From a virus (taxonomy: Duplodnaviria; Heunggongvirae; Uroviricota; Caudoviricetes), in the IMG/VR virus record IMGVR_UViG_2619619134_000014: DNA of 6,359 nucleotides, one strand, 5' to 3'. The notes beneath the pieces are model-generated. The model searched no databases and was not told where the DNA came from. It saw only the letters and a list, made by a program, of their open reading frames with translations. Made by a program: the position numbers and the translations under genes. Shown in pieces: positions 1 through 3,309 of the stretch. Every line of letters starts with the position of its first letter. Position 1 is the first letter of the stretch.

Positions 1-276
1 TTACCGACTGCGGCCTGAGTTTTTTAAGTGACGTAAAATCGTGTTGAGGCCAACGCCCATAATGCGGGCTGTTGCCCGGCATCCAACGCCATTCATGGCC
101 ATATCAATGATTTTCTGGTGCGTACCGGGTTGAGAAGCGGTGTAAGTGAACTGCAGTTGCCATGTTTTACGGCAGTGAGAGCAGAGATAGCGCTGATGTC
201 CGGCGGTGCTTTTGCCGTTACGCACCACCCCGTCAGTAGCTGAACAGGAGGGACAGCTGATAGAAACAGAAGCCAC
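1..276 (-). CDS. insA: IS1 InsA protein (91 aa)
   Basis: Translation [91 protein letters not shown] matches IS1 InsA from memory, including the zinc-finger-like CxxC...CxxC N-terminus and the HTH region. Confidence 0.95.
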
Positions 277-1636: not shown

Positions 1637-1809
1637 TTCCTCGCACGTTCTCTTAGCCACCGGATATCCCACAGGTGAGCCGTGTAATTGAAGGTTTTTA
1701 CGTCAGATTCTTTTGGGATTGGCTTGCGTTTATTTCTGGAGTGTTTCGTTGGAAGGTATTTGCAGTTTTCACAGATTATGTCGGTGATACTTCGTCGCTG
1801 TCGTCTCAT
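1633..1809 (-). CDS. ninE: NinE (58 aa)
   Basis: Internal Met of ORF 1633..1854 gives [58 protein letters not shown], matching lambda NinE as recalled. The ATG at 1809 overlaps the stop of the upstream gene (ATGA). Confidence 0.8.
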
Positions 1810-2216
1810 TCGTACCTCCTGTCGGTAAATCTGACACCCTGACCAATAGCCCATGCTGTCGTGTACTCAATCAGACTTGCCATACGCTTCACACTCATCT
1901 GCGCGCTACTTTCGCGAATGTTGACGTATTCGCCTTCAAGGCCGGGCAAAACATCAGCTTCCTGCTTTGTTGCCACTGCATGACCGCTGATCAACAAAAC
2001 CTTCCATTGTTCCGGTTTTAACCATTTGCCGCACCATTGAACCTGACGTGCGATATCCGCCAGCATCGCGTGAAATTTTGCGTTCTGGTCAAGGTTGCGC
2101 TTGTAGTCAGTAATGCGGATGGTGACTGGCTTGTCTTTATCGAGTGGTGTTGCGAGGATGGCATTTATTGCAGCTTGCTGTTGTTGCTTAGTTCGGAGGA
2201 AGATTGTTTGCTTCAC
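1806..2216 (-). CDS. ninB: NinB-family (NinB/Orf-like) recombination mediator, GTG start (136 aa)
   Basis: Translation [79 protein letters not shown]... shares the conserved pattern of lambda NinB (..RSLDQNRKLWACLGDVSRQVEWHGRWL..ESWK..). AAGGAG lies 6 nt upstream of the GTG at 2216. Confidence 0.7.
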
Positions 2217-2227
2217 TGAATACTCCT

Positions 2228-2413
2228 TTATTTTTTATGCCTGTAACCCCATTCTTCCAGCAACCTTGCGGCGTACCACCCAAGAAACAAAGGAAAGAAC
2301 ATTACAATGAGATATTCCCCGCCACGGTCAATGTTCGAAATTGACCAGATTACGATGTAACCAGTGCAGGACAGGAATATTACAAACCCCAAAAAGCTAC
2401 TTCGTCGACTCAT
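2228..2413 (-). CDS. small predicted membrane protein with two hydrophobic segments (61 aa from ATG 2413; the ORF track starts 2 codons earlier at GTG 2419)
   Basis: Translation MSRRSSFLGFVIFLSCTGYIVIWSISNIDRGGEYLIVMFFPLFLGWYAARLLEEWGYRHKK has two hydrophobic stretches of about 19 residues and a basic C-terminus. AAGGAG lies 5 nt upstream of ATG 2413, and the stop of the upstream gene (TGA 2416-2418) sits between that SD and the ATG. No family recognised. Confidence 0.5.
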   Translation of the reverse strand: MSRRSSFLGFVIFLSCTGYIVIWSISNIDRGGEYLIVMFFPLFLGWYAARLLEEWGYRHKK

Positions 2414-2415
2414 GC

Positions 2416-2742
2416 TCACTCCTTCACTTTGATTCCAGCAGCGCGGATGTTTTCCTCATAAGCATCCATTGCATCACCGAAGCCATTGGAATAATCAACA
2501 GTAAACCCTTTGGCTAATGCTTCTCTGCTGTCGATAAACTTTGGCGCGGTTATTTCAATAGCTGCTCGCGATGCCTGCCACGTTTGCCAGTGGCCTTGAA
2601 CATCGTCCATCACGTATTGACCACCAATATTACCGCTGCCAATTTCATGGTGATTTTCAGGGTAACGGATAAGGTCTGAAGATTCGCCTCCACGTCGCAA
2701 CCAACTTTCTTCAAACTGGCATCTGCTTTCGTCATCTTTCAT
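2416..2742 (-). CDS. hypothetical phage protein, probably N-terminally truncated (108 aa from ATG 2742; the frame stays open upstream to 2820 with no start codon)
   Basis: ORF 2416..2742 minus (MKDDESRCQFEESWLRRGGESSDLIRYPENHHEIGSGNIGGQYVMDDVQGHW...). The same frame is open for a further 26 codons upstream (YAAFNSAVGGGSTPWGEPIFIECDCL) with no ATG, GTG or TTG, and there is no Shine-Dalgarno before ATG 2742. This suggests the true N-terminus was lost at the junction near 2820. Family not recognised. Confidence 0.45.
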   Translation of the reverse strand: MKDDESRCQFEESWLRRGGESSDLIRYPENHHEIGSGNIGGQYVMDDVQGHWQTWQASRAAIEITAPKFIDSREALAKGFTVDYSNGFGDAMDAYEENIRAAGIKVKE

Positions 2743-2820
2743 AAGGCAGTCACATTCAATAAAAATCGGCTCTCCCCAAGGAGTAGAACCTCCGCCAACG
2801 GCGGAGTTGAATGCGGCATA

Positions 2821-3309
2821 TCAATCAAGATTGATTCCGAATGGGTAACCAAATGGGATGCTGCTGAAAACACGCAGGTAGAAGCCGTCAAAGGTGGTCG
2901 TTCCGGTGCAATGAAGCGCGCTGCCGTTCAGTGGGGAATCGGTCGGTATCTGTATAACCTTGAGGAAGGTTTCGCACAAACATCTCTCGACAAAAAGCAG
3001 GGATGGCACAGGGCAAAACTCAAGGATGGAACAGGATTTTACTGGCTCCCTCCATCGCTGCCGGGCTGGGCAATCCCAGCATCAGATAACAAACCATCAC
3101 CAGAAAATACCAACCAGAAATCTCCATCGGTTGACTGCGAACAAATCCTGAAAGACTTCAGCGATTATGCAGCGACAGAAACTGACAAGAAAAAACTCAT
3201 CGAGCGTTATCAGCGTGACTGGCAATTAATGGCTGGCAATGAGGATGCGCAGGCTAAATGCGTTCAGGTAATGAACATCAGAGTTAACGAGCTAAAACAG
3301 GCGGCATAA
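2821..3309 (+). pseudogene. erf: C-terminal fragment of a Rad52/Erf-like single-strand annealing protein (ORF from Met 2911 is 132 aa; protein-like frame is open from about 2821)
   Basis: The frame reads ...AVKGGRSGAMKRAAVQWGIGRYLY..., resembling the conserved KRA..FG.G motif region of Rad52/Sak-type annealing proteins. The C-terminus (CEQILKDFSDYAATETDKKKLIERYQRDWQLMAGNEDAQAKCVQVMNIRVNELKQAA) closely resembles the P22 Erf C-terminus as I recall it. The 150 or so residues that should precede the motif are absent, and upstream in-frame sequence before about 2821 is not protein-like. Confidence 0.6.

Follow-up and report, generated by a model that had tools for sequence, protein, structure and literature searches.

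ORF61, a 61-codon open reading frame (ORF) on the minus strand of a 6,359-nucleotide stretch of Caudoviricetes DNA (IMG/VR record IMGVR_UViG_2619619134_000014, hereafter the window), occupies positions 2228-2413 and encodes the product MSRRSSFLGFVIFLSCTGYIVIWSISNIDRGGEYLIVMFFPLFLGWYAARLLEEWGYRHKK, followed by a TAA stop. The evidence assembled here, all of it in silico, makes us fairly confident that ORF61 is a real accessory gene of the delayed-early class and that its product is a small membrane hairpin. As to its role, we tentatively propose, by analogy with Imm of phage T4, that the protein may keep the DNA of secondary phages from passing the inner membrane.

The translation signals of ORF61 are tightly interlocked with those of its neighbours. 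On the coding strand the start junction reads AAGGAG (2424-2419), TGA (2418-2416), GC and ATG (2413-2411). This is exactly the arrangement given in a preliminary description of this DNA, in which the stop codon of the upstream gene was placed between the Shine-Dalgarno sequence and the ATG and translational coupling to the neighbours was proposed. At the other end, the TAA stop overlaps an AAGGAG (2228-2223), the ribosome-binding site of ninB, which starts with GTG at 2216. Methionines are found at residues 1 and 38 only, with no second start codon near the N-terminus. The GC content of ORF61 is 0.43 (0.50 at third codon positions), the adjoining genes lying at 0.44-0.51.

A word-indexed search of 5.8 billion proteins placed the ORF61 family in four clusters at 90% identity. 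One of these, P0004 (loci L003 and L004), holds a protein 72% identical to ORF61, encoded on two short contigs directly after a DnaB-type helicase gene. The replication genes on these contigs have hardly any match in E. coli and reach only about 70% identity to phages of Enterobacter, Erwinia and Yersinia, which identifies the source, as far as gene content can tell, as an enterobacterial phage that is not of E. coli. Scans of genome, viral and metagenome contigs yielded about 90 further copies of ORF61, all at least 88% identical in protein sequence, and no divergent orthologue besides L003 and L004.

The divergent orthologue allowed us to assess selection on the reading frame. ORF61 and the L003 gene are 75% identical over 186 nucleotides with zero indels, and both have 61 codons. 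Their differences fall 17, 8 and 22 times at codon positions 1, 2 and 3, respectively, and the Nei-Gojobori ratio of nonsynonymous to synonymous substitution rates (dN/dS) is 0.19, with dS near 1. Only 17 amino acids differ, versus 28 ± 2.5 in simulations in which the same substitutions were placed neutrally, and a value as low as 17 was reached in 0 of 20,000 simulations. The remaining five frames all contain stops, both in ORF61 and in the orthologue. The similarity spans exactly the region from ATG to stop, the flanks being unrelated, and the L003 copy has its own AGGAGG 4 nucleotides ahead of the ATG in this unrelated context. Conservation is strongest in the second predicted helix, where 17 of 19 positions are the same in the two proteins; IDRG in the turn, as well as LEEW and RH in the C-terminal tail, are also kept in P0004. 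In a set of 91 further copies, the 61-codon frame is kept in 90 and the whole ORF is intact in 89, and none carries a premature stop. Their variants cluster in the loop (most at residues 29-33), at residues 15-16 and in the tails, while helix 2 shows only F39Y and one synonymous change. These comparisons indicate that ORF61 is a genuine gene under purifying selection, in agreement with the earlier reading of a real small ORF.

Two loci carry altered forms of the gene. In L047 (IMG/VR 2526164666_000010), a base has been lost from the A-run before the ORF61 stop, and the protein is thereby lengthened to 74 residues, running into the ninB ribosome-binding site. In a low-coverage gut-metagenome contig (L096, 2940-3190), about 34 nucleotides are replaced at the 5' end, which puts the usual ATG out of frame; an internal ATG gives an in-frame MTTRLLGF... 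product. The replacement may be natural or may have arisen during assembly.

The product of ORF61 has the features of a membrane hairpin. Over 19-residue windows, its Kyte-Doolittle profile has one peak of 2.08 (residues 7-25) and another of 1.66 (residues 34-52), both exceeding the customary threshold of 1.6, and the Wimley-White octanol sums for the same segments are -12.4 and -13.0 kcal/mol, respectively. AlphaFold2, run on the single sequence, modelled helices at residues 3-26 and 31-59, with a mean predicted local distance difference test score of 75.6. Two such hydrophobic windows occurred in just 0.03% of composition-preserving shuffles of ORF61, and the hydropathy pattern is therefore not an effect of composition; among the 18 ATG-started ORFs of 50-90 residues in the window, ORF61 is alone in having two. 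Lysine and arginine number 2 in the N-terminal tail, 1 in the loop and 4 in the C-terminal tail, a distribution for which the positive-inside rule predicts an N-in/C-in topology. With an N-terminal tail of 6 residues, a turn of about 5-8 and a C-terminal tail of about 10, the protein is probably a helical hairpin inserted in the cytoplasmic membrane with both ends inside. Hydropathy, model and charge count thus agree with the earlier claim of 61 residues, two hydrophobic helices of about 19 residues and a basic tail. The features of ORF61 and its surroundings are collected in Table 1.

Table 1. Positions of ORF61, its signals, the predicted segments of its product and flanking features in the window
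Feature	Position	Strand	Basis
ORF61 coding sequence with TAA stop (2230-2228)	2228..2413	-	translation, dN/dS versus orthologue, further copies
Shine-Dalgarno sequence of ORF61, AAGGAG, within the final codons (K-V-K-E) of the upstream gene	2419..2424	-	sequence
TGA stop of the upstream gene, 2 nucleotides ahead of the ORF61 ATG (translational coupling)	2416..2418	-	sequence
Predicted transmembrane helix 1, residues 7-25, FLGFVIFLSCTGYIVIWSI	2339..2395	-	Kyte-Doolittle, octanol sum, AlphaFold2 helix 3-26
Predicted short periplasmic turn, residues 26-33, SNIDRGGE	2315..2338	-	hydropathy minimum, break between AlphaFold2 helices
Predicted transmembrane helix 2, residues 34-52, YLIVMFFPLFLGWYAARLL, most conserved part	2258..2314	-	hydropathy, octanol sum, orthologue identity
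Predicted cytoplasmic C-terminal tail, residues 53-61, EEWGYRHKK	2231..2257	-	charge count
Upstream gene, 108 residues, phrog_343; phage records call it 'Sf6 gene 48 protein' or 'similar to P22 EaD'	2416..2742	-	
Downstream ninB, GTG start	1806..2216	-	Pfam NinB 1e-55
Deletion junction, nin block (-) joined back to back with 5'-truncated Rad52-like recombinase gene (+)	2743..2795	.	

The surroundings of ORF61 vary far more than the gene itself. In 89 loci, ORF61 had a median identity of 99.5% to the window copy (minimum 93.5%), while the 321 nucleotides upstream had a median identity of 76% to the window and the 411 nucleotides downstream were unrelated in 17 loci. The upstream gene belongs to many sequence classes; in 18 of 18 such classes from E. 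coli-type loci the left border string AAAGTGAAGGAGTGAG is kept, one class having AAGGGG for AAGGAG. The right border, TAAAGGAGT(A/G)TTCAGTGA(A/C)GCAAAC, is kept in all copies but one, which is frameshifted. An empty site is seen in mEp235 (...AAAGTGAAGGAGTAACGATGAAGCAA...), where the upstream gene ends with the same KVKE stop and the ATG of ninB follows after 2 nucleotides; in HK022 the slot before ninB is filled by an unrelated, non-hydrophobic ORF of 84 residues. The cassette was found in 195 of 5426 complete E. coli genomes (about 3.6%), in each at an identity of at least 95%. Four sequenced phages (Gally, HZ41, vB_EcoP-611R6 and phiv205-1) also carry it, all classified as Lederbergvirus, that is, P22-like; the Gally copy is identical to that of the window. 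Judged from these alignments, ORF61 is an optional gene cassette of the early operon in a variable slot. The preliminary description had named lack of conservation in related prophages as an outcome that would speak against it. The gene is indeed absent from most relatives, but it is near-invariant where present and, in one case, conserved across genera.

Two further observations concern the cassette borders. The start codon of ninB is GTG wherever the cassette is present and ATG at the mEp235 empty site (window 2214-2216 versus L069 2815-2817), and the motif AAGGAGT is repeated at the borders. The border sequences suggest that the cassette was inserted or exchanged by recombination at ribosome-binding-site junctions.

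We considered when such a gene would be expressed. In vB_EcoP-611R6, which is intact, a strong terminator-like hairpin with a T-run lies just after the helicase gene, at the same place as an annotated terminator in mEp235, and we found neither a promoter ahead of ORF61 nor a terminator-like site next to it in this phage. Next to ORF61 in the window there is likewise no intrinsic terminator and no sigma-70-like promoter on either strand, as judged by a simple consensus search that could miss a weak or non-sigma-70 promoter. Morons are defined by a promoter and terminator of their own and by a deviant GC content (PMC3594210); since ORF61 has neither signal and its GC content is ordinary, it is not a moron. 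In the Gally lysogen of strain LF82, no gene but the repressor showed transcription more than 5-fold over the local background, and this phage was judged 'devoid of any moron' (PMC9928086). Together, the operon position, the lack of an own promoter and terminator, the tR2-like terminator and the Gally data favour expression in the lytic cycle over an exclusion function expressed by the lysogen. From this arrangement, ORF61 is more likely to be expressed as a delayed-early, antitermination-dependent gene through translational coupling, as part of the lytic programme, than in the quiescent lysogen.

Searches for relatives of known function returned little. Scans of ORF61 against Pfam, PHROG and NCBIfam gave no family match, and the defence models of PADLOC-DB gave none at E ≤ 0.1. 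A profile built from four ORF61 sequences and run against the 5.8 billion proteins recovered the same four 90% clusters and added none. In an exhaustive HMMER search of 1.84 billion representatives there were four weak matches, none below E = 1e-10 and none a credible relative. Foldseek found no match at E ≤ 0.001 among viral predicted structures, a two-helix hairpin being too simple to inform, and an Rfam scan of the whole window found no family. A full-text literature search for the ORF61 peptide string retrieved no paper, and one on membrane or exclusion proteins of the nin region nothing specific. The protein is already public as a 'hypothetical protein', without a family, a name or a study. 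The roles in exclusion or toxicity put forward in the preliminary description thus find no support from homology: Pfam, PHROG, NCBIfam and PADLOC connect ORF61 with no known exclusion, toxin or defence family.

Some of the weak matches were examined and set aside. Acyl_transf_3, the sole Pfam match at E ≤ 0.1, was sub-threshold and typical of hydrophobic noise. Three of the four HMMER matches were long repetitive proteins whose score was summed over repeats, and they were rejected as spurious; the fourth has 5434 residues, with no matched stretch listed.

On this basis, we propose the following role for ORF61. In intact relatives the gene would lie in the delayed-early part of the rightward early operon, where transcription from pR would have to pass the tR2-like terminator and would hence depend on N-type antitermination. 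Ribosomes ending the upstream gene would restart 2 nucleotides further on at the ORF61 ATG, using the Shine-Dalgarno sequence inside that gene, and the protein would be made in infection or after induction and not in the quiescent lysogen. Its site of action would then be the interior of the bilayer, where it would bind a second inner-membrane protein or associate with itself. Since almost no mass lies outside the membrane and helix 2 with AAR-LEEW is the most conserved part, the action of ORF61 is expected within the membrane or at its cytoplasmic face. By altering the inner-membrane step of phage DNA entry, the protein may allow the infected or induced cell to exclude secondary phages in the manner of Imm. 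We give an even chance to this explanation as a whole, that is, an optional delayed-early cassette for an N-in/C-in intramembrane hairpin with an Imm-like role as the leading guess; taken alone, the Imm-like role is less likely than not.

Imm of T4 acts on DNA entry at the inner membrane and is made early in lytic infection (PMC11436027). Imm (83 residues) and ORF61 both have two hydrophobic helices and a short R-G-containing loop, a likeness that is architectural only. Imm is known to be lytic-early and ORF61 would be so by its position, and neither would be made from a repressed prophage. ORF61 differs from Imm in its length (61 versus 83 residues) and in coming from a temperate P22-like phage. 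We also considered the wider possibility that ORF61 is the first known member of a narrow new family of delayed-early inner-membrane hairpins in P22-like and lambdoid phages, closing DNA entry or another membrane function during replication, as a sequence-unrelated temperate counterpart of T4 Imm; this we regard as doubtful.

Several observations weigh against the proposed explanation. BLASTP between T4 Imm and ORF61 is non-significant (E = 0.48), and the Pfam family PF14373 (Imm_superinfect) matches Imm at 7.4e-16 and does not match ORF61. Among the 91 close copies, the variable sites comprise 5 synonymous and 14 non-synonymous changes, which is near the neutral ratio, so that the evidence for selection comes from the one divergent orthologue and the lack of premature stops. 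As to timing, ORF61 is unannotated in the Gally record and was therefore not scored as a gene in the published transcriptome, which makes that evidence indirect, and the promoter scan has the limit given above.

The same data bear on other explanations. The preliminary description had named a superinfection-exclusion, abortive-infection or toxin-like factor as a candidate, which in its lysogen-expressed form would be a constitutive membrane protein that blocks or aborts other phages. There are precedents in HK97 gp15 and P22 SieA, which, like ORF61 by prediction, are accessory inner-membrane proteins of lambdoid and P22-like phages (PMC3594210), and ORF61 is accessory and spreads horizontally among prophages. 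The genes for gp15 and SieA, however, have their own promoter and are expressed in lysogens, morons having in addition a terminator and a deviant GC content, whereas ORF61 has none of the three. It is instead tightly coupled in translation inside a repressed operon and lies downstream of the tR2-like terminator, and in the Gally lysogen no autonomously transcribed gene was reported except the repressor (PMC9928086). Furthermore, PADLOC and Pfam gave no match, and direct BLASTP of ORF61 against P22 SieA and P22 SieB was non-significant. Type I toxins (Hok/Gef, TisB, Ldr), which are often found on prophages, usually have one helix, a promoter of their own and an antisense RNA. ORF61 is like them in being a small, hydrophobic, predicted membrane protein on a prophage, but it differs in its two helices and its place inside an operon; we found no promoter for it on either strand and no match in Rfam or Pfam. 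A lysogen-expressed factor of this kind, weakened by these results, appears quite unlikely. A protein that forms pores or depolarises the membrane in the lytic cycle, either as a holin- or antiholin-like timer or as a toxic hairpin that associates with itself and shuts off the energetics of the host membrane, has to be weighed as well. Class II holins and pinholins of the phage 21 S21 type have about 60-70 residues, two transmembrane helices, an N-in/C-in topology and a charged C-terminal tail. In size, in its two helices, in its topology and in its charged C-terminus, ORF61 resembles them by prediction; unlike them, it belongs to an early operon and lacks a dual start, its helix 1 is strongly hydrophobic, and Pfam and PHROG gave no match to a holin or toxin. 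It is also distant from the lysis cassette: in vB_EcoP-611R6 the holin, lysozyme and spanin genes lie about 3 kb downstream, after Q, while ORF61 stands between the replication genes and ninB. The relatives that bear ORF61 have a lambda-type holin, endolysin and spanin of their own, and a true holin expressed early would be suicidal for the phage. We consider a pore-forming role very unlikely.

A further alternative is a modulator of a host inner-membrane protein that acts in something other than exclusion, for instance in counter-defence against membrane-acting abortive infection of the RexB type or in tuning FtsH/HflKC, transport or division. A hairpin with little extramembrane mass and a conserved helix 2 would suit intramembrane binding, the neighbouring early-operon genes are host-interaction and recombination accessories, and other, unrelated small hairpin ORFs in the same block suggest a hotspot for membrane accessories. 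We found no homology or co-occurrence signal, and the present data do not separate a modulator from the proposed explanation; a modulator is in our view unlikely. Finally, ORF61 might have no function, being a chance ORF or a linker that only carries ribosomes from the upstream gene to ninB. It is true that no family was matched, that the Prokaryotic Genome Annotation Pipeline (PGAP) left ORF61 without annotation in the RefSeq rows inspected, that variation among close copies is near neutral and that most related phages do without the gene. Yet the low dN/dS, the equal length at 75% nucleotide identity, the Shine-Dalgarno sequence kept in an unrelated context and a homology that stops exactly at the ORF borders all speak for a coding function, as do two amphipathically sensible helices of a kind that shuffling so rarely produces. 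Moreover, the empty site of mEp235 shows that ninB can be coupled without any spacer. The absence of any function is scarcely credible.

The surroundings of ORF61 in the window place it in the nin part of the early-right operon, as described earlier: ninB is directly downstream, the gene upstream is coupled, and the minus-strand genes around it include ninB, ninE, ninX, ninF, ninG and ninH. Its assignment to the slot of lambda ren has to be corrected, as the prophage of E. coli UTAK-6 has ren three genes further upstream of an identical ORF61. In P22, the place directly ahead of ninB is taken by the 26-codon ninA. Like ORF61, ninA is a small ORF that follows the replication genes and immediately precedes ninB; it differs in overlapping a terminator, and neither length nor sequence is shared.

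Gene content identifies the window as a defective P22-like prophage remnant. It lacks the immunity region with the repressor, N, ren, the O/P-type replication genes and both early promoters, pL and pR, and because of these deletions the prophage must be defective. Having lost pR, it may also leave ORF61, intact here, silent. At the junction, homology to the Rad52-like gene begins at 2796, which corresponds to 194 nucleotides into the L070 gene, and the truncated gene (2796-3309, plus strand) points away from the nin block. Homology of the upstream gene to the L001/L002 allele stops at about 2717-2718, its first 25 or so bases coming from a different allele. The right half of the window contains ssb and other early-left genes. 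At the opposite end, an IS1 insA frame (1-276, minus strand) adjoins ninH, and IS1 probably interrupts or replaces the Q/late region. As one contiguous stretch, the window was found in no complete E. coli genome of the collection.

Other small hydrophobic ORFs are found in the block before ninB. In intact relatives, the second gene upstream from the ORF61 slot, immediately following the tR2-like terminator, encodes a 68-residue two-helix hydrophobic protein of phrog_1165 (HK022_58, mEp235_046, WP_000229806.1; L002 5490-5696; L001 6655-6861, minus strand; L068 2274-2480; L069 2322-2480); the deletion has removed this gene from the window. This protein and ORF61 are both hydrophobic hairpins of the same delayed-early block, but they are unrelated in sequence (BLASTP E = 3.6), and the phrog_1165 protein is far more widespread. 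L025 (4186-4425) and some 16 further IMG/VR loci have a third hydrophobic ORF downstream of ORF61, separated from it by a remnant of 13 codons from the start of ninB; this third ORF is AT-rich, has 60 residues (MVNAFICSLF...KYYW) and has no Pfam or PHROG match. A paralogue of the upstream gene and then full-length ninB come after the third ORF, and a DUF7301 gene lies upstream of ORF61. The block before ninB thus looks like a hotspot for small membrane ORFs.

If ORF61 does found a new family, the block between the replication genes and ninB, with up to three unrelated small hairpin ORFs, would be a hotspot for membrane-targeted accessories. ORF61 would show a temperate phage acting on the inner membrane in the delayed-early phase, where few functions are known. 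Should it exclude or sensitise other phages, this would be relevant to how prophages compete in gut E. coli, among them the Crohn's-associated strain LF82 with its phage Gally. The gene is a clean candidate for testing, as it is carried by Gally, which can be induced and resides in a clinical strain that is well studied. Small hydrophobic orphan genes are common in phage genomes, and ORF61 points to no new principle or kind of system.

ORF61 is also a concrete case of a small membrane gene skipped by annotation pipelines and illustrates systematic under-annotation. The exact protein is present on about a thousand contigs of E. coli, Shigella and Salmonella as a 'hypothetical protein' (GenBank, UniProt and metagenome sources), and RefSeq/PGAP has no feature for it in 41 inspected rows (40 listed and one locus in detail). 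The Gally record has an annotation gap at ORF61 (L102 1499-1697), between GALLYPH_39 and GALLYPH_40, and in the phiv205-1 record a shorter, 54-residue version is called from a downstream start (L100 1522-1686). One metagenome-derived record labels the protein 'Renin receptor-like protein'. Among 185,579 species-representative genomes there was a single match, 100% identical to ORF61, on a 10-kb contig (JAEZIN010000021.1) of a metagenome-assembled genome labelled 'Bacillota bacterium'; this contig most probably comes from an E. coli phage and was binned wrongly.

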